From: Candidatus Kaiserbacteria bacterium
GTDB lineage: Bacteria > Patescibacteriota > Minisyncoccia > Phycocordibacterales > UBA918
NCBI GenBank assembly: GCA_020428795.1
Contig: JAGQME010000001.1
Coordinates: 24,178-88,177, forward strand
Direction of reading: 5' to 3'
DNA length: 64,000 bases
The notes beneath the pieces were generated by a model. That model had not been told where the DNA came from and searched no databases. It saw only the letters and a list, made by a program, of their open reading frames with translations. This document shows, one piece after another, positions 1-32,395 of the stretch. The translations under genes were made by a program, and so were the position numbers. The stretch's first letter is position 1, and every line of letters starts with the position of its first letter.

Positions 1-506
1 CGGTAGCCAATCAAGAAAGTGCTTGGGTCTTCATCCATATCAATGAAGTCATCGACTGCTTCTTTGAATTTAGAAGATGCCGATCGACCAAAGGTTATTC
101 CCTCAACCTGACAGCCTTGGCTTTTTATGTATTCAACCAAGGGAATAAAATCTCCGTCGCCGGTAGCCAATACTATGGCGTCAACTTTAGGAGCAATCTT
201 GATAGCGTCAACGGCCATGCCAACATCCCAATCAGCCTTCTTGGCTCCGCCGTAAAAAATTTGTAAGTCTTTAGTTTTGATTTCGATTCCGATTTTTTCT
301 AAAGCTTCGAAGAAGGGTTGTTCTTCACCGCTTTCAGTGTTGACTACGTAACAAGCGGCTCTTATTAATTTGCGCCCACCAACGGCCGCACTTAAAACAG
401 CCGCAAAGTTAACTTTGCACTTGTGTAGATTTTTTGCACTGTGATATAAATTTTGCGTATCAATTATGACCGCTACCCGTTGTTCGGGTTGTCTGATAGA
501 TGACAT
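1..506 (-). CDS. NYN/LabA-like domain protein (PIN-like predicted RNase), 5' part of gene complete, extends off window start
   Basis: Manual reverse translation from the ATG at 504-506 gives MSSIRQPEQRVAVIIDTQNLYHSAKNL...ATGDGDFIPLVEYIK; the pattern of acidic residues and the GDGDF motif are typical of NYN/DUF88 proteins; not in the supplied ORF track because it runs off the edge. Confidence 0.55.
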   Translation of the reverse strand, partial: MSSIRQPEQRVAVIIDTQNLYHSAKNLHKCKVNFAAVLSAAVGGRKLIRAACYVVNTESGEEQPFFEALEKIGIEIKTKDLQIFYGGAKKADWDVGMAVDAIKIAPKVDAIVLATGDGDFIPLVEYIKSQGCQVEGITFGRSASSKFKEAVDDFIDMDEDPSTFLIGY

Positions 507-628
507 ATTTTTATGTGTAGTTTGGTTCGCCTAGACGAACTTAATAATATTAAAATAAGGACTGGTTTAGATAACCTTCGACAGTATACGATAACAAAAT
601 TGATGTTCCAAGCGGAACATCAATTTTG

Positions 629-895
629 TTATCGTTTTAGTCCTAGTTGAGCAATTAGCTTGTCGTAAGATTTAGCGTCTTTCTTCTGAAGATACTTTAA
701 ATGCTTTCGACGATCAGCTACCATTTGCAGAAGACCCCTTCTTGAGTGGAAGTCTTTCTTGTGCTTTTTTAGGTGCTTGGCTAGGTCTTCAATCTGGCGA
801 GTCAAAAGAGACACTTGAACTTCTGGTGAACCAGAATCATCATCGTGTCTTCTGACAGCTTTGATTGCATTTGATTTTTTTTGTTTGCTTAACAT
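629..895 (-). CDS. rpsO: 30S ribosomal protein S15
   Basis: 88 aa; [34 protein letters not shown]...[16 protein letters not shown] is the canonical S15 sequence pattern. Confidence 0.95.
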
Positions 896-1075
896 TTGGC
901 AAGTTTTTAAATTAGTCCTTTGGCGTAGATAGCGCCTAGTCCCTGTAGTAACCTGCGAAGGTTGTTACTACTATAGCACATTTTCTGACTTTTGCAAGTT
1001 ACACCGTAGATTTTGTTTTTGTCAAAAAGCCGATGGTTTCTGTTTTGCTATACTATATATGACGTACATATATAT

Positions 1076-1993
1076 ATGAATCTTACTCAACTCAAACGCC
1101 AATTCTTGGAATATCTTGAAATCGAACGGGGTCGGGCAGTTAAGACGGTAGAAAATTATGATCGCTATCTGACAAAATTCTTTGAATATGCCAAAACCGA
1201 TGATCCAAAAAAAATAACCGAAGATATGGTACGTGAGTTTAGGTTGTATCTTAATCGTCAGCCAGGTACCAAAGTCGGTAGTCGAATAGATCCAATGAAA
1301 AGACGCACCCAAAATTATTATCTAATCGCTCTAAGGGCTTTTCTAAAATATATTAGAAAAAGAGGGGTCACTTCACTTTCGCCGGAGGTAATAGAGTTGG
1401 CTAAGGTGCCAGAGCGATCATTGGATTTAATTACTCCCCAAGAACTCGATAGGTTGATGAAAGCGCCCGACACCAAAACTCCGCAAGGTTTGCGTGACCG
1501 AGCTATTTTGGAACTACTTTTCTCTACTGGACTTCGTATTTCTGAACTATGTGCTCTATCGATTGATGATGTTGATTTGAGTCGAGATGAATTTTCGGTT
1601 CGGGGAAAGGGTGATAAGGTGCGAGTGGTTTTTTTATCTGATTCAGCCAAAGAAGCTATTAGTCTTTACCTAAAAGCTCGTAAAGATATGGATGAAGCAC
1701 TTTTTATTCAATATGGAAAACGAGCTGATAAAGCTAAGGACAGACGTCTGTCTACCAGAGCGGTCCAGCGTACTCTAAAGTCGGCAGCTATTAAGGCTGG
1801 TATCACTCGCAAGGTATCACCTCATGTTATTCGCCATAGCTTTGCTACCGACTTACTAAGTAACGGGGCTGATTTGCGTTCGGTTCAAGCTCTCTTGGGT
1901 CACGCTAACATTGGTACCACTCAGATTTATACTCATGTGACAGACAAACACTTGCGTGACGTTCATAAGAAATATCACAGCCGGGGTGGGTGA
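1076..1993 (+). CDS. xerD: Tyrosine site-specific recombinase, XerC/XerD family
   Basis: Core-binding N-domain followed by catalytic motifs ...RHSFATDLL... and LLGHANIGTTQIYTHV (catalytic Tyr). ORF-track start at 1013 is probably an N-terminal over-extension; MNLTQLKRQFLEYLE at 1076 is the more likely start. Confidence 0.88.
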   Translation: MNLTQLKRQFLEYLEIERGRAVKTVENYDRYLTKFFEYAKTDDPKKITEDMVREFRLYLNRQPGTKVGSRIDPMKRRTQNYYLIALRAFLKYIRKRGVTSLSPEVIELAKVPERSLDLITPQELDRLMKAPDTKTPQGLRDRAILELLFSTGLRISELCALSIDDVDLSRDEFSVRGKGDKVRVVFLSDSAKEAISLYLKARKDMDEALFIQYGKRADKAKDRRLSTRAVQRTLKSAAIKAGITRKVSPHVIRHSFATDLLSNGADLRSVQALLGHANIGTTQIYTHVTDKHLRDVHKKYHSRGG

Positions 1994-2094
1994 GTTGTAG
2001 ATTGTAATTTTTTGTGGACTCACGGAAATGAGCTTGGTAGTCATCAGGGTGTCTTTGACTCCGGAGTTTTGGTATATCGTGACTTATTTTCTCG

Positions 2095-4506
2095 CTAGTA
2101 ATCAATGCTGGTAACGACATTACCAATATGGGCTAACACATGCTCTTTGCCATCTTTATCAAAATACCGAGCATCGTATGTTGTTGCTCCGATTTCGGGC
2201 TTACTTGAGACAGGTAGTGCAAATTCGGTCTGATTTGTAGCGTTTTCTACAAACTGTAAGATTAAACTTTTTGCTTTTGTAGCGTCAGCATTACTGCGCA
2301 CAATCTCATTAGATTCATCAGTCAGCACTACACGTTTGTTCGGATTTTGGATGTAATCAGAAGCTAGTATTTCCATGACCTGATCGTTATCGTTCTCCTT
2401 GATCCAATCGGGTAACCTGTCGAAATGTTCCCAATCAGCAATATTGTCAACTCTAGGTATGAAGACTAGTACATTTTGAGGTTCTTCCATTTCTCCTTCT
2501 GCACTTTTGAAACGTTGCGTTCGTCCATCTTTGAGATAGGTATATACAGAACCTTTGGCTGTTGTAATAGATTTTGGTACCTTAACTTCCTCGACCTCAT
2601 CTTCTGTTGTTTGAGTTTCAGGTTGATTCGGTTGTTTTTGTAGTTGTTTCCATTGGCTAAAATTACCGTCCATGTATGCCCAGAAGGCAGTTCTGTCGGT
2701 TAGCGTTTCTTTTGGAAAACCTACTTGTTCAAGAGCGCCAGGATATTGTTGTTCATAAACTTGATTAAGTTTGAAAATATCATTTTGATTTCGAGCCCGA
2801 ATCCATGGAACCACTTCGCTTTCAACTATTAACATTGACTGCTCTCCATTCTCTGTTTCAAAAGTTTCAATGGTTCCAATTATAAAACCACGATCAATTT
2901 TATCTTGCCAATCCGCAGTCTCTTCTTTATTGGCTGTAATCTTTTTGTATGGATATTCGGTACGAAAAATTTCAGCAGGCATTTTTTCAAGTCCGCTAGC
3001 TTTAACTCCAGCAACTCGGTGCGTACCGTCAAAGACAGAATAAATTGGTCCGGCTGGGCCTTCATAACTAGCCAGCTTAATTCTATCTCCTAGTTTATCT
3101 TCCGTATGGAAAATTCTTTCAACCCCGGCTTCATTTTCTGGGTTATTTATCTGGTCAACAATTTCTCCAATTCGACCTTTTCGTTCATTATACTCATGTG
3201 CCCATCCATCCTCATAATTATCAGCATTTGGACGACCAATTATTTTTTCAGTAGCAACCAACTCAAATGAGCCTTTATCAGCACGTGAAGGTTCAATATC
3301 ATAGAAACTTCTTGTATCAATAATAGGCTCGGCTTTTAACTTTTCATAGTCTGGTTCAGTATTTAAAGTTCCAGTAGCTTTTTCTGTTTGAATGTAGTTC
3401 ACAACACTGCTCTTACTGATTTCTTCGGTATTATTGATGATTGCTTCAACTTTCTCTTGATTTAATTGCTGTTGATCATTCGTAAGACTTTCGGTTATTA
3501 TACCCTCAAACGATTCTCTTGGCGTTTGAGTGATTTTGTCAGCGGGTGTTTCAGTTGAAGTGGGGTCTTCGGGTGATGGGTCATTCTGCTCATTTTTGAT
3601 ATCTGGAGCATTTGTTACCAAGCGTTCGTAATAAGCACTTTTTTGCGGAAATCGGTCACTAAATAATTTAATTGCTGTTTCTTCAGGGTTGTAATTAACA
3701 TTCCGTTTAAATAAACGATCATCATCGCTATTATATGTATCAGCTTCTCTCAGGCAGGCGGCAAAATCAGGGTCTTCTTTGATTGAGTTGGGTAATTCTT
3801 CATCAGTCACTCCACCAGCCATAATCGCATCTATTTGAGATTGAATCATTTCACGTTCTTTTGCTAAGGCTTCAATCTTTATTTTTTCTTGCGTTAACAC
3901 TTCGTAGCGATCTGACACTCCATTCATCTCAATCACCACATCCCGTCGGTTTAGTTTCAAGCGATCAGAGTCATCAGCTTCAATCATGGCATTTATTTCG
4001 TCTAACTCGCTTTGAAGTTTCTCTGTTGCTCGGTGGTTGCGTTCTAATCGTTCATTAAAACTTGCCTCTTGTTTGTCGAAGGATAAGAGTCTGTCTCGCA
4101 AGCTAGCTGTTTTACCGTCTAACACCTGCCCAGCAATAAAACTTTTTATGATCTCGTCCTTTTTATCCGGAGATTTTGGGTCTGCTTTGATAATATCAAT
4201 ATCAAGTTTGCTGCTGGTGATTCTGTGCTCTGCTTGATTGATTCGATTTTGTATTTCTGGTAGACGGTATTCAAAATGCGACGGCTCCGTTGTATTCGTG
4301 TCTTGCCACCTCTCCAGATCTATCAAGGCAGCATCTCGGTTAATTTCTGATAGACGAACTCCTTCTTCAAGAGCTTCAATACGTTCCTTTTTAGTATCTT
4401 CAATAGTTAAATTTCCAGCCTCAATCTTTTCTTTAGTACCAGGATTTTCATTCTGATTATTCTTTTCAATTGATGGTGTGGCGGGATTTTCAAATTCTTT
4501 TTGCAT
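2095..4506 (-). CDS. Large hypothetical protein: N-terminal coiled-coil/acidic half and a C-terminal region carrying a ParB/sulfiredoxin-like nuclease motif
   Basis: 803 aa, no signal peptide. N-half is low complexity and rich in E/K/D/Q with heptad-like character. Motif YSVFDGTHRVAGVKASGLEKMPAEIF (about aa 440-465) resembles the DGxHR...A core of ParB-like nuclease/Srx-fold domains. Starts 40 bp downstream of tRNA-Ala on the same strand. Confidence 0.5.
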   Translation of the reverse strand: MQKEFENPATPSIEKNNQNENPGTKEKIEAGNLTIEDTKKERIEALEEGVRLSEINRDAALIDLERWQDTNTTEPSHFEYRLPEIQNRINQAEHRITSSKLDIDIIKADPKSPDKKDEIIKSFIAGQVLDGKTASLRDRLLSFDKQEASFNERLERNHRATEKLQSELDEINAMIEADDSDRLKLNRRDVVIEMNGVSDRYEVLTQEKIKIEALAKEREMIQSQIDAIMAGGVTDEELPNSIKEDPDFAACLREADTYNSDDDRLFKRNVNYNPEETAIKLFSDRFPQKSAYYERLVTNAPDIKNEQNDPSPEDPTSTETPADKITQTPRESFEGIITESLTNDQQQLNQEKVEAIINNTEEISKSSVVNYIQTEKATGTLNTEPDYEKLKAEPIIDTRSFYDIEPSRADKGSFELVATEKIIGRPNADNYEDGWAHEYNERKGRIGEIVDQINNPENEAGVERIFHTEDKLGDRIKLASYEGPAGPIYSVFDGTHRVAGVKASGLEKMPAEIFRTEYPYKKITANKEETADWQDKIDRGFIIGTIETFETENGEQSMLIVESEVVPWIRARNQNDIFKLNQVYEQQYPGALEQVGFPKETLTDRTAFWAYMDGNFSQWKQLQKQPNQPETQTTEDEVEEVKVPKSITTAKGSVYTYLKDGRTQRFKSAEGEMEEPQNVLVFIPRVDNIADWEHFDRLPDWIKENDNDQVMEILASDYIQNPNKRVVLTDESNEIVRSNADATKAKSLILQFVENATNQTEFALPVSSKPEIGATTYDARYFDKDGKEHVLAHIGNVVTSIDY

Positions 4507-4546
4507 ACATTACTTATAATACACCCAGTCACTCGCCTCGTTCGCT

Positions 4547-4620
4547 TGGTGGACTCACGGGGAATCGAACCCCGAATTTATCCATGCCATGGATACGTAT
4601 TACCACTATACTATGAGCCC
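4547..4620 (-). tRNA. tRNA-Ala (anticodon GGC), CCA encoded
   Basis: Reverse complement GGGCTCATAGTATAGTGGTAATACGTATCCATGGCATGGATAAATTCGGGGTTCGATTCCCCGTGAGTCCACCA folds as a cloverleaf. Acceptor GGGCTCA/TGAGTCC has the G3:U70 Ala identity pair. D-stem GTAT/ATAC; anticodon loop ATGGCAT; T-arm CGGGG-TTCGATT-CCCCG. Confidence 0.85.
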
Positions 4621-5033
4621 TAAATTAAAATAATGTGGTGGCGACATTGTACTAGAAAAGAAGTAAAATCACCACCTGATAATGTATGGATATTTATCCC
4701 CAGTCAGTTTGTTGCACTAACTTGCCAATTTAATACAGAGGAGTAGAATTAATAGTGAATCCCCGTACATTCAAAGTTCTTTTTAAAAATTGTAGTAGAC
4801 TACAGCCACCCGTATGGCAGTAATCTGCTAATAACAAACAATTTTTATCACCCACGCTCATTTGTTGAGCAAAACCCACAACAACCCAATCAAATTTTTT
4901 CTTTCCTTTTCCCACCCCTGTCCGCCCTGCCCCCTTCGAAAAAAGCTCGATTACGGGTTGTTTTTTGTTGTGTTATTTTTATTTTTGTGCAAGAAACTTA
5001 ATCTTAGGTCTAATTTTTATATTTTTAAAAACT

Positions 5034-5085
5034 CAAACAAACTAAACCGGTGTGGGCCTTGGCCCACACCGGTTTAGTTTGTTTG
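5034..5085. terminator. Long perfect palindrome / bidirectional intrinsic-terminator-like hairpin downstream of the 5117..5953 gene
   Basis: CAAACAAACTAAACCGGTGTGGGCC-TT-GGCCCACACCGGTTTAGTTTGTTTG forms a stem of about 24 bp. Confidence 0.6.
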
Positions 5086-5116
5086 ATTGTTACTAAGCTG
5101 GTCTTATAGTTTATTC

Positions 5117-5953
5117 CTAAACCTTATTAATCTCAGCTTCGTTTCGTAATTCTTCAATTATGTCACTAACTTGATTTTGTTCAGCTTCTAATTTTAGTTG
5201 TTGTTCGATCTGAGTCTCAACTTCTTCCAGTGGTGGCAAGCCAGCCGCTTCCCCGCCAAGTCTTTCGTAGTATTCTAATACTTGTTGGTCGTCAATTTCT
5301 ACTTCAGTTATTTTAGTGTCAAGATAAGCTTGAATATGGAGATTGTCAGCGATGTTGGTTTTTAGTGTTTCTTCGGTAAGACCGAATTCTGTTAACAGTT
5401 CAGCGAAAGCCTCTTCTCCACCATTTTGAGTAACTAAGGTATCAATCTCAGCTTGTACCGCTTCGTCTGATGGTCGTTCGACTGACTCACTGGCGGCCTG
5501 TTTTAATAACTCATTATTTATAATGACATCGTAAGCCTGAGTTTCGATTTGTGATTTTACAACCAGATCATTGATATCGACCCCACTCTGTAGAGCATTT
5601 TGAGTGACTTGGGTAATACTTTCGGCCAGATCACCTCTAGTGACTGCTATCCCGTTTACATAAGCTACTGGCTCGGCCGCTTCTTCTGGGGTCAGGGTGA
5701 TATTTGGATTGTTGTCAGCGTCAGCATTGGCTTTATCATTGGCTAGTTGCATATAAGCGACCCCGGCTACAATCAAGACCAAGACAGCGACTCCGGCAAA
5801 AAATAATGAAGGCTTCATTTTTCTTTCTGGAGTGGTTTGGTCTGGGGTCGATAATGAATTACTGGTACTGTTAGCCATCGGCTCGTTATTGTTATCGATT
5901 GGTGATTGGTTTGTTTCAGATTCAGGGTTATTGGTTGTTTGATTTTGCTCCAT
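5117..5953 (-). CDS. Membrane-anchored SurA-N-like chaperone domain protein (PpiD/PrsA-like N-domain), low-complexity N-terminus
   Basis: 278 aa; N-terminal N/S/T-rich stretch, one TM helix (LFFAGVAVLVLIVAGVAYM), then VAYVNGIAVTRGDL...ETQAYDVIINNELLKQ resembling the SurA N-terminal domain. Confidence 0.45.
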   Translation of the reverse strand: MEQNQTTNNPESETNQSPIDNNNEPMANSTSNSLSTPDQTTPERKMKPSLFFAGVAVLVLIVAGVAYMQLANDKANADADNNPNITLTPEEAAEPVAYVNGIAVTRGDLAESITQVTQNALQSGVDINDLVVKSQIETQAYDVIINNELLKQAASESVERPSDEAVQAEIDTLVTQNGGEEAFAELLTEFGLTEETLKTNIADNLHIQAYLDTKITEVEIDDQQVLEYYERLGGEAAGLPPLEEVETQIEQQLKLEAEQNQVSDIIEELRNEAEINKV

Positions 5954-6137
5954 AAATATTTCTTAAATTCTGCGTTAAGTAATTTACGTATACAGTAGCA
6001 CGCTCATTATTTTTGTCACCGTTACGTTAAGCAGAACTACGTTGTATTGTTATATTTTGTTAGATTGCGGTGATGTTTTTACTAGTCGATCCAGAATACC
6101 TCGGGGTGTTAGGGCGGAAATGGCTAGGTGGATGTTT

Positions 6138-8546
6138 TTACAGATTAACATCATTTACATCTAGGTGAATAGTGTCACCTTTTTGGACTAGACCGCCAAT
6201 AATATTTTGGGCAACAGCTTCTTCTATAACATCTTGAATTACTCTTTGCATTGGTCTGGCTCCAAATACGGGGTCGTAACCCTTTTGGACTAGAGCATCG
6301 ACTAGGGCTGGAGTAAGGGATATTTGGTAACCTTGATCATTGATTCTGGATTGTAGTGAAGCCAGCATGAGCTTGGCGACGGAATGTTGTTCAGTAATGG
6401 TTAGTGGTTCAAATATAATAGTGTTATCAAAACGGTTTATTAATTCTGGTCGGTAAATTCCGGTCGATACAATTTCTTCGATTATATCTCTAGTGATGGT
6501 TTTTAGGTCCCTACCCTCCTTGACGGCGTCCATAATATGATTGCTACCGGCGTTACTAGTCGCAATAATAATAGTGTTTCTAGCATTAATTTTTTCACCA
6601 AAACCACTGGTAAACATTCCCTCGTCTAAGATTTGCAGGAATATGTCATGAATGGTTGGGTCAGCTTTTTCAAATTCGTCTAGCAACAATACGCTGTAAG
6701 GACGTTCTTGTAATAAAGAAGGTAATACCCCACTTTCTTCATTGTTGCCGATCATGTGACCAACTCTGTCTTCGCTACCGTATTCAGACATATCAAGACG
6801 AACCATTTTGTCTTCATCTCCAAAAAATATGTAGGCCAATGCCTTGGCGGTTTCTGTCTTTCCTACTCCGGTCGGACCAAGAAACAAGAATGAACCAATT
6901 GGTCGATCACTATTTACGATACCGGCTCTAGCTCTTCGCATAGTGCTTGATATAGCTGAAAGAGCAGAATCTTGCCCAATTACTCTGGCGTGTAAAGTGT
7001 CTTCTAGATTGAGTAATACGTCTCTCTCTTCACTAGTAACCGGTCCGACCGGCATGCCGGTTTTTTGAGCGATAACACTATAAACTAAGTCAGGGGTGTA
7101 AATATAATTCTCCGGTGCTCGCATTGCCACATCGGTCAAAAGAGCGATAGCCTTATCCGGCATGACACCATCAACCAGATATCGATCGGCCCCGACTGCG
7201 ATGGCTTCGATGGCTGGGTAAGTAAATAATCCATTTTGTTCATACTGAGTAGCAATTGATTGTAATAAGAAAATACTACCTTCTTGTCCGGGTTCTTCAA
7301 TTAAGATTTCTTCAAATCTTCTGGTAAAACCACTGTTTCTTTCAAGTGTATTATGAAAATTGCTTGGTGTATCTAATGCAATAATATGTAAGTGAGGATG
7401 AGCCAAGTATTCGTCCATTAGTTCCGGTACATATGAGCCAATTGATTCTGCTTGTTTTATGAAATTACTCATATTCTCTATCACCAATATAATATTTCCA
7501 GCCCCGAGTGATTCATTTAGTAGTTTTGTGAAAATATTTTCAAAACTGACTTTATTTTCGCTATTGGCAAAAATAGCGTCAGTGTCTAAGGTGACAAAAT
7601 TTTGATCTATCACCGAAGCGATAGCATTACCTTGTTTTATTTTGTCTGCTAAACCTATCACGATATCCATTTTACCAACTCCTGGTTGTCCGATTATCAA
7701 GGCATTAGCAGCTTGATTCCTAGCTAAGGCTTCTTCTAATTTGTTTATGTAGGGGGCAGAAAAATCATAGTTTCGGGTCAGACCTCCAAATACAGCGCTG
7801 GAATAAAGACTCTTAGTGTATCTCTCTAAATGATAGGTATGACCGTATGTCCAAGTACGAGCAATACCAGGTGTTTTTGACAACATATCACGGCTCCACC
7901 ACTTCTCTCTTCTCTTGAGAGCGTGGTTATTTTTAATTACCCAATTTAAGGCGCCAATAAAGTGTTCTTTTTGTACGCCAGATTGACCAAGTAGTTTGGA
8001 AAAGGCTGGATCGTTTTGCAGTATAAAGATACCAATGTTGATCAGAGTGACAACTTTTTCGTTATCAACCGGAATTGATTCAGTATTGATGATAGTTCTG
8101 TCACTACTGTTTAGATATTCAGAAATAGCTTGTTTAGTTATTCCGGTTCGACTTAAAACCAGACTACCAAGTGGTGACAAGGCAAAGCCCTTAAAAACAT
8201 CATTTTCGTATTGACCAAACGCCTCGGCTACTTCGTAGGTTATTCCACTCTCTGGTTTGCTACTGATGCCAATGACATTTTCTAATCCAAAAAAATAATA
8301 GTAGTTATGAAAACTATAGAGCAATAATTGCTCAATCCATAAGCTAGTAGCGATTAAGGTTAAACCAATAGCGTAATCAAAATAGTCATTTTGTCCAACA
8401 GCTAGAAGAAAGACACTAAGCAGTCCAGCTAACACAGCAATTGTTCCAAAAATTAGGCGTAATCTATTAAGCCAGTCTCTAGATATTATCTTGGTTAAGG
8501 CAATCGCTGGTTTATGATAGCGAAGAGAGTTTTTTAAAGTGAACAT
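6138..8546 (-). CDS. ClpA/ClpB/ClpC-family AAA+ ATPase, membrane-anchored, with degenerate first ATPase domain
   Basis: 802 aa. Two N-terminal TM helices. D1 has a Walker A-like IIGQPGVGKMDIV (T replaced by M) and no DE Walker B (ILVIENMS). D2 is intact (FLFLGPTGVGKTE ... VLLLDEFEKA ... sensor TSNAG) and the C-terminal ClpB-D2-small region reads GARPMQRVIQ. Confidence 0.82.
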   Translation of the reverse strand: MFTLKNSLRYHKPAIALTKIISRDWLNRLRLIFGTIAVLAGLLSVFLLAVGQNDYFDYAIGLTLIATSLWIEQLLLYSFHNYYYFFGLENVIGISSKPESGITYEVAEAFGQYENDVFKGFALSPLGSLVLSRTGITKQAISEYLNSSDRTIINTESIPVDNEKVVTLINIGIFILQNDPAFSKLLGQSGVQKEHFIGALNWVIKNNHALKRREKWWSRDMLSKTPGIARTWTYGHTYHLERYTKSLYSSAVFGGLTRNYDFSAPYINKLEEALARNQAANALIIGQPGVGKMDIVIGLADKIKQGNAIASVIDQNFVTLDTDAIFANSENKVSFENIFTKLLNESLGAGNIILVIENMSNFIKQAESIGSYVPELMDEYLAHPHLHIIALDTPSNFHNTLERNSGFTRRFEEILIEEPGQEGSIFLLQSIATQYEQNGLFTYPAIEAIAVGADRYLVDGVMPDKAIALLTDVAMRAPENYIYTPDLVYSVIAQKTGMPVGPVTSEERDVLLNLEDTLHARVIGQDSALSAISSTMRRARAGIVNSDRPIGSFLFLGPTGVGKTETAKALAYIFFGDEDKMVRLDMSEYGSEDRVGHMIGNNEESGVLPSLLQERPYSVLLLDEFEKADPTIHDIFLQILDEGMFTSGFGEKINARNTIIIATSNAGSNHIMDAVKEGRDLKTITRDIIEEIVSTGIYRPELINRFDNTIIFEPLTITEQHSVAKLMLASLQSRINDQGYQISLTPALVDALVQKGYDPVFGARPMQRVIQDVIEEAVAQNIIGGLVQKGDTIHLDVNDVNL

Positions 8547-8564
8547 ATATATGTATTGTCTAAA

Positions 8565-9032
8565 TTAAAATAACATCAAAATTCCCCAGATAAATAAAAT
8601 CACAATCAAGCCGGGTGCCAAAAGCCAAAAAGCATAGATAAAGCCTATAGACAGTATTTCAATTATTAAAACCATTAGGCCTATCAGTATCACTGCTGTG
8701 CGCATGACGGCTCCAACTAGCCGTGAGAATATATTGATAACAATGGCTCCAGCGATGGCTTCAAAGTCCCAACCACGTCCCTTTGACTCGGTCATTCTCT
8801 TCCAAGGAGAAAATAAAGATTTTAATAAAAGTACAATCGAAAAGAAATTAACGGTAAACCAAAGGAGGTTTTTCCAAATTTGAAATAATGAGCGCAGAGC
8901 AATTGAGTAATGCCACACTAGATAGTGGTTAAGAACTAAGATTGAAGTCATATATGTAGTATAACGTGAACCAGTCGTTAAAATTATTTCGGCTGTGTAT
9001 CTGAATAGATACTTTTTGGTATTTAGGGTCAA
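8565..9032 (-). CDS. Hypothetical multi-pass membrane protein (true start probably the internal MTSILV near 8951)
   Basis: 155 aa with 3-4 hydrophobic helices; sits upstream of and co-oriented with the Clp-like ATPase; 5' end overlaps the xthA start if taken at 9032. Confidence 0.35.
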   Translation of the reverse strand: MTLNTKKYLFRYTAEIILTTGSRYTTYMTSILVLNHYLVWHYSIALRSLFQIWKNLLWFTVNFFSIVLLLKSLFSPWKRMTESKGRGWDFEAIAGAIVINIFSRLVGAVMRTAVILIGLMVLIIEILSIGFIYAFWLLAPGLIVILFIWGILMLF

Positions 9033-9051
9033 AAACCCATATAATAGCCCT

Positions 9052-9846
9052 ATGAAGATATACTCATGGAACGTTAACGGAATTAGAGCCGTTGAAAGAA
9101 AGGGAGCCTGGCAAGATTTTATTGGTAAACATAAACCTGATATTGTCTGTATTCAAGAAACTAAGGCCCAGTACGGCCAAATTGAGTTAGATTTACCAGA
9201 TTATGAAGAATTTTGGTGTTCGGCCGATAAAAAAGGCTATTCCGGAACGGCTATTTTTAGCAAAATAGCACCAGAAGAGGTCTTGTATGGACTGCCAGAA
9301 CACATTGTTGCTAAATATGCCTTAGCGGATAACTATGGAGATACCAGTAAAGAAGGTAGAGTTTTAAGCCTAGAATTCCCTAATTTTTATCTTAGTACCG
9401 TTTACACGCCAAACGCTAAAGACGATTTAAGTCGTATTCCGATCAGGCAACAGTGGGACCCAGCTTATTTGGAGTATATGTGTGAGCTTAATGAGCAAAA
9501 ACCAGTTATTTTTTGTGGTGACTTAAATGTGGCCCACACTGAATTAGACTTGGCCCGACCAAAAGAAAATCAGGGCAAAAAAGGTTTTACCACAGAAGAG
9601 CGGACTGGTATTGACCATATGATTCAGGCTGGGTTCGTTGATTCCCTGCGAGTATTTAACAAGGAGTCCGGTCAGTACACTTGGTGGTCACACTGGGGTG
9701 GAGCTAGAGAGCGAAATGTTGGTTGGCGTATAGACTATGTTTTTGTTTCTGAAGCACTGCGGTCTATACTGAAAAATGCTCGAATCCATCCAGACCAAAT
9801 GGGTAGCGATCACTGTCCAGTATCAATCGATATAGCCTTAGATTAA
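9052..9846 (+). CDS. xthA: Exodeoxyribonuclease III / AP endonuclease (EEP family)
   Basis: MKIYSWNVNGIRAVERKG...DIVCIQETK...NAKDDLSRIPIRQQWD...GDLNVAHTELD...SDHCPVSIDI: all ExoIII catalytic motifs present. ORF-track start at 8995 is an over-extension. Confidence 0.9.
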   Translation: MKIYSWNVNGIRAVERKGAWQDFIGKHKPDIVCIQETKAQYGQIELDLPDYEEFWCSADKKGYSGTAIFSKIAPEEVLYGLPEHIVAKYALADNYGDTSKEGRVLSLEFPNFYLSTVYTPNAKDDLSRIPIRQQWDPAYLEYMCELNEQKPVIFCGDLNVAHTELDLARPKENQGKKGFTTEERTGIDHMIQAGFVDSLRVFNKESGQYTWWSHWGGARERNVGWRIDYVFVSEALRSILKNARIHPDQMGSDHCPVSIDIALD

Positions 9847-10587
9847 GTGTAAAAATAATCACACGAATCATAATTATGTCAATTGCCTTTCAGGCACCAC
9901 TTATTATAGCTATAAATAACAACGTATATTAGCTACTATGATTTTAAAAATTTTATAAAGGACATAAAAATTTTGTTATACACAGTTATCCCCAAGAATG
10001 TCCTTTACACTTTTTTATAAAGGACATAATATATTGGTAGGCCCAGAGAGGGCGAGCAGAGGTATCCGGAGTTCTCAACGGAAGCAAATTGTTTCTAAGG
10101 AGAGCTTCGGATATTTCCCTTAAAGAGTACATCAACAATTAATGAGTTAATACCTCCAACTCTAAGTTCATAACATCCCACCTTAGTAAAGCGAGTTGCC
10201 AAATGAACTGCGATCGGATAACGAACCCGTGGAGAAATTGGTTCGAAGTCCGACTCAGTTCATTAAAAGCAACTAAAATTATATTCATGTAAATCTAATA
10301 CGAATATATAATAGCTTTGCAAAAAAGAGCCATAAAATTTTGGAAATCTCAACGAGATAACCAGCAGAAGCAAAGCTTCACATAGGCTCAAACGAAAAAG
10401 GCCTGAGGAACCGGCAGCAAATCACCTTTCACCACCTCTGATTAGCTCCCGATTCCTCAGGCCTTTATTTATAAGTGAGCAAATGAACATAGCGACTATT
10501 GCGAACTATGTCTGCTATTTGTATGAAATATGGCCTATTGGCTCATTATTTCAACCATTTTTTATTAAAAAACCAAAATCTACCACC

Positions 10588-10617
10588 AGAAATCCCCCTT
10601 AAATAGGGGGATTTCTG
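10588..10617. terminator. Intrinsic terminator hairpin downstream of cca (AAATCCCCC...GGGGGATTT family)
   Basis: CAGAAATCCCCC-TTAAATA-GGGGGATTTCTG immediately after the cca stop, followed by a T-rich tract on the minus strand. Confidence 0.6.
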
Positions 10618-10637
10618 CATCAAACGCTTAGATTTGA

Positions 10638-12110
10638 CTATAAAACCTTATGTTCCTTAGCAATTTTTTGGAGAGCAGCCGTTTCTTCTTCTAACTGTTT
10701 TTTCTTGCCAGCTTCAGCTAGGTTTTTAAGCTCTGTTTCGTTCAGTAAATACAAGGCTTTAGCTCGGTTTTCCAGATATTCTTCAGTGTTTTTGCTAGGG
10801 TCTATCAACACCTCTTCCAACAGGGTGTGTAGGACATATCCAAGCTTTTTACCCGGTTTTTCCCCAGTAATATCCATAATTTTATCCCCATTTATCTTTA
10901 GCATCTTAACGGATATGGGGTCACGTAGCGCTTCGTCAACCATAGCTTTATATTTACGGAATCGAAACGGTTGCTCGTTGGGCCGACCGGTACCAATACG
11001 GTCACATACTCTTAGGTTCAGTAAGTCTTCAATATGTTCCTTACCGATTCTAACTATGGTACGGCGAACGGCAGCTAAGGTTATTTCGTCAGGATCTGAA
11101 AAAAACATATGCCACCGTACTAAATTCTCCACATTTTCACTCAATTCACTCGGTAGACGTAATCTAGACAGTATTTTCTTAGTCATTCTGGCTCCCACCA
11201 CTTCATGGCCATAAAATGTGTAATGCTTGTTTTTTCCTCCGGTTCGTCTGGTGGCTGGTTTGCCAATGTCATGGAGTAGAGCGGCTAGCCGTAGCTCGGT
11301 AGAGAAATTTTTATCAGCAGCGGCTTGCATAGTTCTTAGTAAGTGTTCATATACATCATATTTATGGATACCACCCTGTTCGCAACCAATTGAATTTTTG
11401 ATTTCTGGTAAAATATAATCAAGTAGTTCTAATTTTTCAAGGAAAATCAGGCCTTGCATCGGAGAGGTGGAATTGATAATTCTGATGAATTCACTAGCTA
11501 CTCTTTCAACTGAAATATGTTGAATTCGTTGACTATTTCGGACGATGGCGGTCATCGTCTCTAACTCAATTACAAAGCCCAATTCACTGGCTAGACGTAC
11601 GGCTCGCATCATTCGGAGAGCGTCTTCACCAAATCTTTGGTCCGGCACCCCAACTGTCTTTAATGTCTTCTCTGAAATGTCCTTTATGCCGTTGAATTCA
11701 TCCACTAATGTTTCATCTGATAGCTTGTAGGCAATAGCGTTAACGGTGAAGTCCCGCCTAGCCAAATCTTCCACTAAACTCACACCAAACTCGACTTTAT
11801 CGGGTCGTCTTGAATCAGAATATCCAGTCTCAAGCCGGTATGGTGTTACCTCCACTACTTTAAGGGTTTCGTCGGTTGTTTCTTCATTTTTTACCCCTAC
11901 TGTACCGTAATCATTATTACAAAAGCTGTCAGGAAACAGTTCTAGTATCTGATTAGGGTGAGCATTGGTGGTGATATCCCAGTCCTTAGGAGTTTTTTTG
12001 ATAAGTAAATCTCTTACACAGCCACCGACTAAATAGGCTTCAAAACCAGCGTTTTCTAAGGTTTCAGCTATCTTTCTTACCTCTAAAGGTATGTCACTCT
12101 TTTTAATCAT
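10638..12110 (-). CDS. cca: CCA-adding tRNA nucleotidyltransferase with HD domain
   Basis: Pol-beta head GGCVRDLLIKKTPKDWDITT; RLDxx...; HD domain LHDIGKPATR; 490 aa with a coiled-coil C-terminal extension. Confidence 0.88.
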   Translation of the reverse strand: MIKKSDIPLEVRKIAETLENAGFEAYLVGGCVRDLLIKKTPKDWDITTNAHPNQILELFPDSFCNNDYGTVGVKNEETTDETLKVVEVTPYRLETGYSDSRRPDKVEFGVSLVEDLARRDFTVNAIAYKLSDETLVDEFNGIKDISEKTLKTVGVPDQRFGEDALRMMRAVRLASELGFVIELETMTAIVRNSQRIQHISVERVASEFIRIINSTSPMQGLIFLEKLELLDYILPEIKNSIGCEQGGIHKYDVYEHLLRTMQAAADKNFSTELRLAALLHDIGKPATRRTGGKNKHYTFYGHEVVGARMTKKILSRLRLPSELSENVENLVRWHMFFSDPDEITLAAVRRTIVRIGKEHIEDLLNLRVCDRIGTGRPNEQPFRFRKYKAMVDEALRDPISVKMLKINGDKIMDITGEKPGKKLGYVLHTLLEEVLIDPSKNTEEYLENRAKALYLLNETELKNLAEAGKKKQLEEETAALQKIAKEHKVL

Positions 12111-12174
12111 GGATACCTCAATTGTATCAGAAAATGTTGCTTTTTCTTACTATAACACGTATTATTTTAGCGTT

Positions 12175-12246
12175 GCGCCTGTAGTGAAATGGATATCACA
12201 ACTGACTTCGGATCAGTTATTCTGGGTTCGAGTCCTGGCAGGCGCA
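12175..12246 (+). tRNA. tRNA-Arg (anticodon TCG), CCA not encoded
   Basis: GCGCCTGTAGTGAAATGGATATCACAACTGACTTCGGATCAGTTATTCTGGGTTCGAGTCCTGGCAGGCGCA. Acceptor GCGCCTG/CAGGCGC; D-stem GTGA/TCAC; anticodon stem ACTGA/TCAGT with loop CTTCGGA; T-loop TTCGAGT. Confidence 0.8.
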
Positions 12247-12295
12247 CAATATTAAATCCCCCTTTTAAAAGGGGGATTTAATATTGTGCGCCTGC
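12238..12295. terminator. About 25-bp perfect palindrome that incorporates the 3' acceptor strand of tRNA-Arg
   Basis: GCAGGCGCACAATATTAAATCCCCC-TTTTAAAA-GGGGGATTTAATATTGTGCGCCTGC; the left arm begins inside the tRNA, and the core is the same AAATCCCCC/GGGGGATTT motif as the hairpin at 10588. Confidence 0.6.
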
Positions 12296-12383
12296 GAAAA
12301 AGTCTGGGAGGCTGTTTTGATAGGACTAGACAAGGTGTATCGAAACTGTACCGAGTGTTATTTAACAATGTATAATAATATTA

Positions 12384-12668
12384 ATGGAATTATCAGAAAG
12401 ATATATAAAAACCCTTGAAAAAGAAGGTTTTATTAATATTTACGAGTGGCAGGATGTATCAGGTACCGAATATCCTTTGCATAGTCACCAAGATAAGGTC
12501 ACTATATTTTTAACAGACGGTTCGGTAACTTTTGATTTTTCAGGGGTTAAGAAAGAACTAGTGGCCCCGATCCGGTTTGATGTCCCACCAAATACCCCAC
12601 ACTCGGCTGTAGTCGGTCCCCAAGGGGCAATTTTTATTGTTGGTGAAATGATAGAGGGTGACTCTTAA
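12384..12668 (+). CDS. Small cupin-fold protein
   Basis: 94 aa; YPLHSHQDKVTIFLTDGSVTF ... PPNTPHSAVVGPQGAIFIVGE matches the cupin two-His motif pattern. Confidence 0.5.
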   Translation: MELSERYIKTLEKEGFINIYEWQDVSGTEYPLHSHQDKVTIFLTDGSVTFDFSGVKKELVAPIRFDVPPNTPHSAVVGPQGAIFIVGEMIEGDS

Positions 12669-12703
12669 GGATTGTTTCTTAATTTAGAGATCGTTTTATT
12701 TTT

Positions 12704-14515
12704 TTAGGACACCAAATTTTTTGACCAAGCTTTTACAATATTTTGTATGTTGGCGATCCAGTCGTCAGAATTATTAACTTCACCAATACTATCAACAATT
12801 TTATCTATTAAGATCTTTAGGTTATTGTGGTTAAACTGCTTGTTCTCTTCTCGCAGTTGTTTGAGTGTTTTTAATAATTCAATAAATTGCTTGATGGTGA
12901 GAGGGGCGATTTTTTGCTTTTGGCCTTTATAACCAACGGTATTCGCAATATAAAAAGTCTCAGCACTGTCAGTGTGAATTGTAGGGGCTAAGAAGACACA
13001 ACGGGCATTATCGTGCTTGTTTTCAAAATCACGTAAGTGTCGCATGACGGGTTGTCCCTCATTAAACCATTGGTCACGGCCGTTTAACATTGTGACCTCA
13101 CAGATCATATTAAAGCTATTGTAGAAACATTCAATGTCAGCCAAGCCACCTGGTGCGGTTGAAGTTGGTTGATTGTCGTCACCGACTGGGTAATTTGGTT
13201 TGATTTCTTTTGCGTCGTTTAGGGCGTACAGTCCCATTGTTGTTAGGTATTCAAGCATTAAGGCTCGATTTTCTAGTTCAAATATTTTTTCTAGTTGCTC
13301 GATGTAATCAGTAATTGATGAAATTGGTTGTGATTTGAGACGATTATTTTTTTCTTGTAAATCTTTACGTATCAAGCGTAAATTACTGATATGTAACGCT
13401 AGATCATCTTCAGTCATGGCGGATATAGCCGGCTGTTCATCAACTGTTAAACCAAGTTCGCTTTGCAATTCGATTACATTTTGATAGAGAGTATTGGCAA
13501 TTTCCGACAATTTATCTTTAGTATGCCAAGGTAAAATAGGTTGATTATCATCAGATAGATAGGTTAAATAAGCTTTTTTATCTACAAATTGTTTGGGTTT
13601 ATAGAATTCACTTTCAAATAAAGCTTCAATCTCAGTGTGTCGATTAGGTTCTAGGTCAATGTAGAAGCCATTACCTCGAATACGAACAAAACTGGTTAGA
13701 CGAAAGTATCTAATCGCATTATCACCGTAATCTTGCAGGTTTGTAATGAGTTTATTAATTTTTGCTTGATTACCAGTTCCTAAGAAATTAGTAATGAATT
13801 GTTTACGATATTTATCACGTATTTTTTTGCGTTCGGATTTCGTCTTGCCATTTTGTAGGTTGCGTAATTCGATTATTTTTCTTGCGTAGGACTCAATATC
13901 AGTATATTTAACCAAAGATGGTACAAAGAGTGAAAATTCCCCCTTGCTAATCCCCTTCGCCTTCTGTCCTTGTTCCATCTCCAATCTATTGACGGTGCTG
14001 ATTAGCTTTAAAGTAGCCACAAAAGGCACAGTCCCGTAATTACCATCGTTAGTAAATTCATTACTAGCTGGATTAGGTATTTGCCATTTAATAAATGATT
14101 TTAAGAACACTTCACCGGTGTTTTGGTCATCTTTGATCAGTTTTTTACCCAGCTCGGTTATCTTTAAAATTCCGTTATCAATAATCACAAAGCCAAACTT
14201 AGTGAGCGGGTTTAACGATTGGCGACCCCGCATCGAAAAGTCGGTGTAATTTTTTAATCTGAGAATCCTATCAATCGTTTCGTCATTAATTTCTAAGTCG
14301 GTGTCATTTATATTATTGATGATGTCCGGAGTTAATCCATTATAAAATTGCGTGTTGCCAAAGCCATAAAGTCTGTTTTTTATCAAAAGTTTCTGATAAT
14401 TGGCTTGATTAGCCTTATCCCAAGGCTTATTTTCAAGTAATTTAGTCACCACCAAAAAATCACGGAGACGTTCTGGGTTTCTGACCGTTGTTGTGATAGA
14501 CCAAGCTTTTAGCAT
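12704..14515 (-). CDS. Type IIS restriction (or nicking) endonuclease, AlwI / N.BstNBI / PleI / MlyI family
   Basis: 603 aa. Segments NPLTKFGFVIIDNGILKITELGKKLIKDDQNTGEVFLKSFIKWQIPNP, AIRYFRLTSFVRIRGNGFYIDL and MLNGRDQWFNEGQPVMRHL...CVFLAPTI match the conserved blocks of the RE_AlwI family as I recall them for N.BstNBI. Adjacent to a two-domain methyltransferase. Confidence 0.72.
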   Translation of the reverse strand: MLKAWSITTTVRNPERLRDFLVVTKLLENKPWDKANQANYQKLLIKNRLYGFGNTQFYNGLTPDIINNINDTDLEINDETIDRILRLKNYTDFSMRGRQSLNPLTKFGFVIIDNGILKITELGKKLIKDDQNTGEVFLKSFIKWQIPNPASNEFTNDGNYGTVPFVATLKLISTVNRLEMEQGQKAKGISKGEFSLFVPSLVKYTDIESYARKIIELRNLQNGKTKSERKKIRDKYRKQFITNFLGTGNQAKINKLITNLQDYGDNAIRYFRLTSFVRIRGNGFYIDLEPNRHTEIEALFESEFYKPKQFVDKKAYLTYLSDDNQPILPWHTKDKLSEIANTLYQNVIELQSELGLTVDEQPAISAMTEDDLALHISNLRLIRKDLQEKNNRLKSQPISSITDYIEQLEKIFELENRALMLEYLTTMGLYALNDAKEIKPNYPVGDDNQPTSTAPGGLADIECFYNSFNMICEVTMLNGRDQWFNEGQPVMRHLRDFENKHDNARCVFLAPTIHTDSAETFYIANTVGYKGQKQKIAPLTIKQFIELLKTLKQLREENKQFNHNNLKILIDKIVDSIGEVNNSDDWIANIQNIVKAWSKNLVS

Positions 14516-14536
14516 GGTCTGATTATGGCATAAAAG

Positions 14537-17448: not shown

Positions 17449-17451
17449 CAA

Positions 17452-17480
17452 AGAAAAAAGACCTCCAAGGGTCTTTTTTT
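17452..17480 (+). terminator. Intrinsic terminator directly after tRNA-Gly
   Basis: AAAAAAGACCTCCAAGGGTCTTTTTTT. Confidence 0.55.
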
Positions 17481-17600
17481 GACTGTGGCCAGGGGCGTAG
17501 CTTTGTGCATACAAAGCGTTGCGCAGAATCGAAAAGCTTTTGTGATACTTTTGAGCTTTACAGCGAAAAAGTATCCAAAAGGTGTACAGAATCTGTAAGA

Positions 17601-17621
17601 TTCGATTCTCCCTGGCCGCAC
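17601..17621 (+). repeat. 21-nt perfect direct repeat of the 3' end of tRNA-Gly(GCC), T-loop through discriminator
   Basis: TTCGATTCTCCCTGGCCGCAC is identical to the tRNA 3' end. Upstream segments TGTGGCCAGGGG (17485-17496) and GAATCGAA (17526-17533) are complementary to it. Confidence 0.85.
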
Positions 17622-21364: not shown

Positions 21365-21406
21365 AAATTATAATACCCACAGGATTTCCTGTGGGTATTA
21401 TAATTT
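21365..21406 (+). terminator. Perfect 19-bp-stem hairpin directly after tRNA-Pro
   Basis: AAATTATAATACCCACAGGA-TTT-CCTGTGGGTATTATAATTT. Confidence 0.65.
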
Positions 21407-21492
21407 TCGCTAGGGAATCGAAGCCCGATTGAGCTATTTTGAGAACGAAGTGAATCAAAATAGCCAATTGGGATACTGTTCGTGTTGCGAAA

Positions 21493-21513
21493 GATTCCCG
21501 GCTCCCCGACAAA
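21493..21513 (+). repeat. 21-nt perfect direct repeat of the 3' end of tRNA-Pro, T-loop through trailer
   Basis: GATTCCCGGCTCCCCGACAAA is identical to 21343-21363 plus 3 trailer nt. Upstream GGGAATCGAAGCCCGA (21413-21428) is an inverted, slightly mutated copy of the T-arm. Confidence 0.85.
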
Positions 21514-32178: not shown

Positions 32179-32200
32179 TTGTGCGGGTGAGAAGAATCGA
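32179..32200 (-). repeat. 22-nt perfect direct repeat of the 3' end of tRNA-Gly(TCC), T-loop through trailer
   Basis: Plus-strand TTGTGCGGGTGAGAAGAATCGA is identical to 32394-32415. Plus-strand TTCGATTCTTC at 32309-32319 is the inverted partial copy. Confidence 0.85.
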
Positions 32201-32395
32201 TTACCTTCGCATTAGTATATTCATCGGCTAACGCCTCGAATATACTGTGCTACGCAACCCCGACGCTCGAATCGACCTCGCTTCGCTTTGGTCGATATAC
32301 TCGCTCTTTTCGATTCTTCACGTGAGCAAAAACGTTTGCTTATTTCACCCTCCCAACCAAAAACGGGCGCACTTTCGTACGCTCATTTTTGTTTG

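Follow-up and report, generated by a model that had tools for sequence, protein, structure and literature searches.

The window analysed here is a 64-kb stretch of DNA from a metagenome-assembled genome of Candidatus Kaiserbacteria, within the candidate phyla radiation (CPR), and positions given without a locus label are relative to that stretch. Near its beginning lies BIG803, a gene for an 803-residue protein that follows a tRNA-Ala gene and ends close to a gene for an Xer-type tyrosine recombinase (Table 1). The product was an exact match (100%) to the NCBI hypothetical protein KC845_00110 of Candidatus Kaiserbacteria bacterium (labelled P0001). A sequence-only reading of this DNA had described an acidic coiled-coil protein with a ParB-type nuclease motif and had suggested a part in phage defence or in a mobile element. 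The 803-residue open reading frame (ORF), the position of the quoted motif (YSVFDGTHRVAGVKASGLEKMPAEIF, residues 489-514) and the tRNA-Ala 3′ end, 40 nt upstream of the BIG803 start on the same strand, were all borne out by the coordinates.

Table 1. Coordinates of BIG803, its modules and the features around it.
Feature	Position	Strand	Remarks
BIG803 ORF	2095..4506	-	ATG start, 803 aa
N module, aa ~41-295	3622..4386	-	Acidic, helical; also found alone or fused to other C-halves, including HExxH-motif regions
Variable linker, aa ~296-392	3331..3621	-	Rich in Thr, Pro and Glu; neither length nor sequence conserved
Middle module, aa ~393-625	2632..3330	-	Predicted divergent ParB/Srx-fold core, then a beta-hairpin/helical subdomain; stand-alone and fused homologues
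D-G-T-H-R, aa 493-497	3016..3030	-	GxxR P-motif, at a strand-helix junction in the model
C module, aa ~646-803	2098..2571	-	Beta-rich in the AlphaFold2 model (pLDDT 96.7, pTM 0.90)
tRNA-Ala(GGC)	4547..4620	-	CCA encoded
Degenerate copy of both tRNA-Ala acceptor-stem strands	2012..2033	-	GCTCAT-TT-CCGTGAGTCCACAA
Xer-type tyrosine recombinase (context only)	1013..1993	+	Pfam Phage_integrase, 3e-49; convergent with BIG803
Segment without counterpart beside xer in related genomes	1994..5116		Contains the tRNA-end copy, BIG803, tRNA-Ala and a spacer of ~500 nt with a strong terminator
tRNA-downstream elements	17450-17621; 21365-21510; 32181-32394	+; +; -	Also at L006 7777-7990, L033, L041, L047, L054, L065 and L085

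The ATG start was supported by the homologues, whose N-termini open with the same MxEGFENP residues. Compared with three homologues, dN/dS was 0.12-0.17 over the whole of BIG803 and 0.07-0.15 within each of its three modules, with higher values in the linkers (0.29 for that of BIG803). Given such low ratios in all three modules, the gene is real, and all three are under purifying selection. Searches of Pfam, NCBIfam, PADLOC and PHROGs at permissive thresholds returned nothing for BIG803, and at E ≤ 1 Pfam gave no family for it or for five homologues scanned likewise. No membrane segment was present (maximum Kyte-Doolittle mean over 19 residues, 0.54), and no signal peptide was recognised by eye, no dedicated predictor having been used. 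The acidic character claimed for the N-half was confirmed (65 Asp and Glu against 45 Lys and Arg in residues 1-300). The coiled coil claimed along with it is plausible only: the N-terminal ~300 residues are low in Pro and Gly (5.5%) and contain heptad-compatible stretches at about residues 120-240.

BIG803 is an accessory gene. The loci of 80 related species were retrieved via the Xer protein (65-84% identity), and BIG803 was absent beside xer in every one of them. A tRNA adjoined xer in none of the 35 related loci scanned, and the relatives also lacked tRNA-Ala at this locus. The recombinase, which has rpsO upstream of it in 76 of the 80 loci, is a housekeeping Xer, and its proximity therefore says nothing about the mobility of BIG803. 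A tyrosine recombinase gene does adjoin BIG803, the two stop codons being 101 nt apart, but it is convergent and falls outside the repeat-bracketed segment described below. Xer as the integrase of an element, and an integron-like cassette, were both rejected on account of this orientation, the linkage to rpsO and the absence of BIG803 from the related loci. An Xer-integrated element at dif beside xer (IMEX) was rejected as well, since the 80 loci showed no conserved dif-like motif downstream of the xer stop.

The stretch that follows xer was variable among the relatives, some continuing straight to a SurA-like, ClpB-like or exonuclease III gene and others containing several kb of unrelated DNA. 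The interval from xer to the exonuclease III gene (1994-9000 in the window; L007-L086) is a variability hot spot of the clade, ranging from ~30 bp to ~9 kb with unrelated content. Its flanks (rpsO, xer and the exonuclease III gene) are widely conserved, and a ClpB-like gene and a transmembrane protein recur in part of the clade. In the window BIG803 is flanked by xer, the tRNA and SurA/ClpB-like genes and does not lie in a defence island. No terminator-like site was found between tRNA-Ala and BIG803, and the GC profile of the window showed no clear anomaly over the BIG803 segment. Just after the SurA-like gene, an inverted repeat with 31-nt arms (5028-5091, 94% complementary) forms a strong bidirectional terminator-like hairpin, which gave spurious sub-threshold Rfam matches (psRNA14, MIR5998).

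Modules of BIG803 and the predicted fold of its middle module

Twelve proteins among 5.8 billion resembled BIG803 in full or in part, some of them with swapped C-halves, and their alignment resolved it into an N module, a variable linker, a middle module and a C module. P0011 and P0012 matched in the N module only, and in P0008 the C module was replaced. An exhaustive search with hidden Markov models found 350 representative clusters holding one or more of the three modules, either by themselves or in other fusions of up to 1477 aa. With several modules per polypeptide and extensive shuffling, the modules of BIG803 recur in many other architectures, and as judged from these alignments the three are shuffled independently across Patescibacteria. 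Divergence from P0002 at synonymous sites was unequal between the modules (dS of 1.56, 0.45 and 0.61) and thus pointed to a mosaic history. No paralogous copy of any module was found elsewhere in the window.

Pfam recognised few domains in the fused proteins. Among 65 fused relatives it returned only one calpain-type protease, one GNAT and one marginal Fe_dep_repr_C match, the protease and the GNAT domain being in two different middle-module proteins; ParBc was not matched at E ≤ 1e-3 in 36 fused relatives. Two N-module proteins, P0036 and P0164, contained an HExxH motif. A metalloprotease reading of these paralogues is a lead at the level of the motif, with neither Pfam nor PDB sequence support.

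A constant N module with alternative C-halves, HExxH regions among them, could belong to a protein that an episymbiotic CPR cell uses as a polymorphic toxin or exports as an effector. In that case the N module would serve for delivery or as an adaptor, much as LXG-type domains with their small helical partners do, and the ParB/Srx plus C modules, or an HExxH region in paralogues, as swappable warheads directed at hosts or competitors. The module shuffling and mosaic dS, the single occurrences of a calpain-type protease and a GNAT domain, and the small coiled-coil genes that adjoin some of the homologues are consistent with such a role. We nevertheless consider it quite unlikely. By eye no signal peptide was apparent, a membrane segment is absent, and BIG803 has no known trafficking domain. 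Nor is an immunity gene consistently present downstream, where the window has the convergent xer. The small genes that partner the homologues (see below) are divergent instead of co-oriented, and none of them is present in the window. Because dN/dS is low in every module, there is also no sign of an arms race.

The middle module was modelled with AlphaFold2 from 22 sequences at a predicted local distance difference test score (pLDDT) of 90.3 and a predicted template modelling score (pTM) of 0.85. When this model was compared with the PDB using Foldseek, ranks 1-19 were all occupied by members of the ParB/sulfiredoxin (Srx) superfamily, whose alpha+beta core is common to ParB-N, sulfiredoxin and SerK. 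The top matches were SerK (5x0k) and 1vk1, both at E 5.8e-3 and each over more than 200 columns. Sulfiredoxin was matched with probability 0.99-1.0, a template modelling score (TM) of 0.56-0.58 on the target and a root mean square deviation (rmsd) of ~4 Å. ParB, Noc and Atu1540 were also among the leading matches, those of the ParB/Noc/KorB type at E 0.1-0.3, and Osa stood lower in the list (ranks 36 and 50, E 0.7-0.85). A profile of the family, searched against PDB sequences at E ≤ 1, matched only three SbnI entries (E 0.0035-0.014), over 40 residues centred on Y-x-V-x-D-G-x-H-R.

The P-motif G494-T-H-R497 was placed between a strand (model residues 100-106) and a helix (108-117), and G494, H496 and R497 were invariant in 22 CPR homologues and two from actinobacterial plasmids. 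A conserved strand-loop upstream of it, V-x-T-x-K-I-[IV]-G-R-P at about residues 415-426, is a candidate Box I / C-motif. Because fold, motif position and best sequence neighbour agree, the middle module was assigned to the ParB/Srx group, and the model supports its being a divergent member of this fold, too divergent for the Pfam family ParBc. The earlier proposal of a ParB/Srx-type fold in the C-half was thus upheld, although the Pfam check that had been suggested for it gave no match. Homologues of the middle module, 28-35% identical, occur on plasmids of Mycobacterium, Streptomyces and Kitasatospora and keep the G-x-H-R signature. Two of them are hypothetical proteins of 349 aa (L097 6356-7405, on M. 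intracellulare pFLAC0070_1) and 415 aa (L098 6248-7495, on a Kitasatospora plasmid), which keep the G-x-H-R, GPxGPxY and YE..YP motifs and have a tyrosine recombinase, a VapBC pair and an SNF2 gene among their neighbours.

The location beside xer, the long helical region and the ParB/Srx fold might suggest a housekeeping, chromosome-organising ParB-like factor that uses its coiled coil in partition or condensation. The sequence-only reading had found no resemblance to chromosome-partition ParB, and our results agree. According to Pfam, BIG803 has no helix-turn-helix (HTH), no GERRxRA box (its motif reads DGTHRVAG) and no C-terminal dimerisation domain; parA is not beside it, the neighbours being tRNA-Ala, the SurA-like gene and xer. 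Absent from the locus in all 80 relatives, rare overall, and with homologues in variable island contexts, BIG803 is hardly credible as such a factor, and a partition-type ParB is effectively refuted by distribution and architecture.

An SerK/SbnI-type small-molecule kinase was a further candidate. Its substrate would be L-serine or a similar metabolite, phosphorylated by the middle module, with regulatory or scaffolding functions left to the other modules. The SbnI entries were the only PDB sequence matches, and SerK and 1vk1 led the structural ones. In addition, a stand-alone middle-module protein, P0015 (L088 5609-8532), lies 1.1 kb from a PALP-family enzyme, a class using O-phosphoserine, and near an ATP-grasp gene. 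This arrangement, seen at one locus only, echoes the pairing of SerK and SbnI with O-phosphoserine-using enzymes. Yet the sequence similarity is limited to ~40 residues around the P-motif, and the TM-score to SerK was 0.21 over 209 columns (rmsd 12 Å), so that the second subdomain or its orientation must differ. There is no PALP gene among the annotated neighbours of the window copy or near the other homologues, and core metabolism is not what one would expect from the 300-residue helical fusion, the island contexts and the occurrence on actinobacterial plasmids. We regard a kinase of this type as very unlikely.

The ParB/Srx-type fold is a versatile nucleoside triphosphate (NTP)-binding module whose nucleotide specificity is unpredictable from sequence (PMC12704722), and nuclease activity has been reported for some of its members (PMC5512222). 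By the model, the GxxR pocket of the middle module would bind an NTP. No nuclease or phage-defence role could be shown for BIG803, and NTP binding appears to be the common denominator of the fold.

The C module, modelled from 51 sequences, had scores higher than those of the middle module (Table 1). It had no fold match in the PDB by Foldseek (best E 0.11, TM ≤ 0.25) and no match among PDB sequences. The family comprised at least 109 clusters, mostly stand-alone Patescibacteria proteins of 170-200 aa, with invariant Arg, Lys, Asp, His and Gly residues. In the viral structure library BFVD the model matched five uncharacterised proteins (E 3e-6 to 6e-5, probability 1.0), four of which are 1093-1395 aa long. 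A 2044-aa ORF on an IMG/VR contig (L094, IMGVR_UViG_3300008261_000125; 214-9164 and 9165-16402) combined a PD-(D/E)XK domain with a C module. Only two ORFs of at least 100 aa were called with table 11 in the 16.4 kb of this contig, and the rest may therefore use a reassigned stop codon. Going by the models, the C module is a new family that has no solved-structure relative and is shared with giant phage proteins.

Contexts of the homologues and the tRNA-end repeat

Homologues of BIG803 sit in a cassette different from the window locus, within islands at tmRNA or tRNA genes or close to such islands. In all five other homologue contexts examined, a Metallophos gene and a small divergent gene were located directly upstream, and in three of the five the cassette was preceded by an XRE-type HTH gene. 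Cassettes were seen at L001 (6030-10919), L002, L003, L004, L005, L006, L095 and L096, where small divergent genes of 110 and 264 aa, or of 165-168 aa, were followed by the BIG gene. None of these partners (the HTH and Metallophos genes and those of 264, 110 and 165 aa) was found in the window. The 264-aa neighbour contains an H-T-H-P...S-S-G-D motif that is JAB/MPN-like, a lead at the level of the motif for which there was no Pfam or PDB sequence support. The neighbours also included a weak ArdC-N match (E 0.029). For the hub domains typical of polyvalent proteins (zincin MPTase, ArdC-N, RadC/JAB), Pfam and PDB sequence searches gave no support.

At L001 the cassette is found shortly after a large serine recombinase gene, itself overlapping the tmRNA 3′ end, and at L096 the 3′ end of tRNA-Glu is 115 nt from the stop codon of the homologue. 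At L091 a serine recombinase gene overlaps the tRNA-Glu 3′ end, and the island holds a stand-alone C-module gene. The overlaps of the two recombinase genes with tmRNA (L001 3557-5476) and with tRNA-Glu(CTC) (L091 8227-9790) measure 20-29 nt, and the genes mark integrative islands of Parcubacteria that carry BIG-family or C-module genes. The suggestion that BIG803 is accessory and linked to mobile elements was thus supported, by these islands as well as by the absence from related loci. The DNA homology between the window and the closest copy (81%) is confined to the ORF with 18 nt ahead of its ATG and 4 nt after its stop; the bare ORF is therefore what the two copies share.

Some of these neighbours would also suit a stand-alone anti-phage defence protein, in which the ParB/Srx module would be an NTP-regulated nuclease degrading invading DNA, as in GmrSD/SspE-type systems or Osa. 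The Metallophos protein of the cassette (186-189 aa) matched the PADLOC candidate PDC-S10 at 2.7e-10, one homologue is flanked by a RelB/ParE pair and a Schlafen/AlbA_2 gene, and the distribution of BIG803 is accessory. Osa, a ParB/Srx DNase/ATPase, was among the fold matches, though weakly. Against this, PADLOC returned no match for BIG803, P0008 or P0011, and the window copy lies outside any defence island. A partner domain of the DUF262/DGQQR or HNH kind is missing from BIG803, as is a second nuclease domain, and the solved structures nearest to it belong to kinases and a reductase. The phage-defence role put forward in the sequence-only reading therefore appears unlikely.

The same reading had advised looking for att-like repeats beyond the recombinase. 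None was found there; a copy of the tRNA end lies before it, between the stop codons of BIG803 and xer. The 14-mer at 2012-2025 matches the 3′ end of tRNA-Ala (4547-4560) at 13 of 14 positions on the same strand. It is the only other match in 64 kb at up to two mismatches, for which 0.18 are expected by chance; the analytic expectation at up to one mismatch is 0.009 for the window and 6e-6 for that intergenic stretch. The pair brackets 2.5 kb with a single ORF, BIG803, and no integrase, Xer being outside. By its sequence it looks like attL/attR around an integrase-less remnant of 2.5 kb, but this is ambiguous, since similar copies without cargo follow three other tRNAs of the window. As a control, three of the four other tRNAs in the window, and some in related genomes, proved to have an exact copy of 16-24 nt of their own 3′ end 100-215 nt downstream. 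Such copies pair with an upstream arm and so close a structured element with a partly conserved core. The tRNA-Ala copy carries the 5′ acceptor strand too, as these elements do. The repeat may thus not stem from the arrival of BIG803, which may instead have been inserted between tRNA-Ala and a degenerate element of this kind. Both interpretations place BIG803 in a tRNA-proximal insertion spot.

The tRNA-downstream elements are 110-215 nt long and follow many tRNA genes, yet a minority of orthologous tRNAs. In order, they consist of a terminator hairpin, a 5′ arm that pairs with the last ~20 nt of the tRNA and corresponds to its 5′ acceptor and T-stem strands, a core of partial conservation, and the 3′ end of the tRNA copied exactly over 16-24 nt. 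Each tRNA has arms of its own, whereas the cores are similar across different tRNAs and genomes; the minimum free energy is about -40 to -110 kcal/mol. Rfam has no entry matching them. After tRNA-Arg(TCG) and its terminator (12248-12300, +), GTGCGCCTGC is the reverse complement of the tRNA 3′ end and has no distal direct copy; this site may be half of an element of the same kind. The elements might be gene-capture platforms, with BIG803 as the cargo of the tRNA-Ala copy, in an undescribed tRNA-proximal insertion system of Patescibacteria that moves bare ORFs from a shuffled pool of effector modules. That pool would include a divergent ParB/Srx NTP-binding module and the C module of new fold that giant phage proteins also have. 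This we put forward as an improbable extension, and the tRNA-linked elements may be of wider interest than BIG803 itself.

Proposed role and comparison with known systems

We suggest, in what is an evenly balanced judgement, that BIG803 came from a mobile element and is an accessory multidomain protein moved horizontally, similar to the polyvalent proteins and orphan-ParB fusions known from phages, plasmids and ICEs, and not a housekeeping protein. Good support exists for the description (modules and their modelled folds, purifying selection, shuffling, absence from the related loci, islands around homologues), whereas the mechanism outlined below is inferred. Several results weigh against the proposal. 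The Foldseek E-values of the middle module are weak, none reaching 1e-3, and Pfam ParBc (PF02195) is unmatched by BIG803 even at E ≤ 1. A search of 2.9 million viral contigs did not recover the middle module, and the phage records of GenBank contained nothing that matched the whole protein. Where the middle and C modules stand alone, their neighbours are often housekeeping genes, and these modules are thus not restricted to mobile elements. No integrase accompanies the window copy. An empty site was not found: the junction pattern and the SurA-like neighbour, searched against metagenome contigs, returned nothing, and there was no closer relative. Finally, no virion, conjugation (type IV secretion system) or secretion genes were seen beside any homologue, so that delivery in the manner of polyvalent proteins is unsupported.

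On this proposal, the acidic helical N module would probably bind partners or mediate oligomerisation. The ParB/Srx module could switch or power the modules attached to it by binding an NTP, by hydrolysing it or by phosphotransfer. As a polyvalent-like effector, the protein might act on DNA or on a target in the host or a rival element, in a conflict between mobile element and cell or between elements. Directly after tRNA-Ala, the gene might be transcribed by read-through from the tRNA promoter.

Most accessory proteins in the small genomes of Patescibacteria defy annotation. BIG803 offers a handle on three recurrent, uncatalogued domain families. One is a ParB/Srx family spanning CPR bacteria and actinobacterial plasmids, which adds to the diversity lately recognised in this NTP-binding fold. 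Another, modelled with confidence and without solved-structure relative, is a domain shared with giant phage proteins, and the third is a helical module that carries interchangeable C-halves. Should BIG803 be a mobile-element effector, it would be an entry to the conflict biology of an uncultivated phylum.

Among known systems, SerK/SbnI (5x0k, 5uje, 6nr6) and Pfu-392566 (1vk1) are similar to BIG803 in having an N-terminal ParB/Srx fold and a second subdomain after the core. They also share with it the motif Y-x-V-x-D-G-x-H-R-x(5)-A-x-G...P, followed by a strand. Unlike them, BIG803 possesses additional N and C modules, has no PALP partner and is found in a mobile context, and the alignable part and the TM-score are as low as given above. 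The minimal core of sulfiredoxin (7lj1, 3cyi, 1xw4) superposes on the middle module, and its G-C-H-R resembles G-x-H-R. However, BIG803 has Thr instead of the catalytic Cys at x and a module 2.3 times larger, and sulfiredoxins are enzymes of eukaryotes and cyanobacteria with a defined peroxiredoxin substrate. To the canonical ParB, Noc and KorB, CTP-dependent DNA clamps, there is a distant kinship in fold, and BIG803 lacks parS as well as the partition features named above. It belongs, by Pfam and PADLOC, to none of Osa, the DdrB-like ParB and the GmrS/DUF262 nucleases.

As in tRNA-gene islands and cis-mobilisable remnants, BIG803 abuts a tRNA 3′ end, has a 13/14 copy of it on the far side and is absent in relatives, and its homologues occur in tmRNA and tRNA islands with serine recombinases. 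It differs from such islands in the lack of an integrase between the repeats, in its size of 2.5 kb with one gene, in the 5′ acceptor strand of the distal copy and in the cargo-free copies elsewhere.

Orphan fusions of the ParB-CTPase fold (Kaljevic et al. 2025, PMC12704722) and the DdrB-like ParB of polyvalent proteins (Iyer et al. 2017, PMC5512222) combine an NTP-binding fold with lineage-specific domains, as BIG803 does. Like it they are enriched in mobile elements, lack a ParA partner and show domain mosaicism. The surveys that described them began from Pfam PF02195 or DdrB (PMC12704722, PMC5512222). The middle module of BIG803 matches neither, it is joined to undescribed modules, and there are no phage or conjugation genes next to the ORF. 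The fusion of ParB/Srx folds to lineage-specific domains on mobile elements is a known theme (PMC12704722, PMC5512222); new in BIG803 is the combination of a family outside Pfam ParBc with a module of predicted new fold and a shuffled helical module, in an uncultivated phylum.

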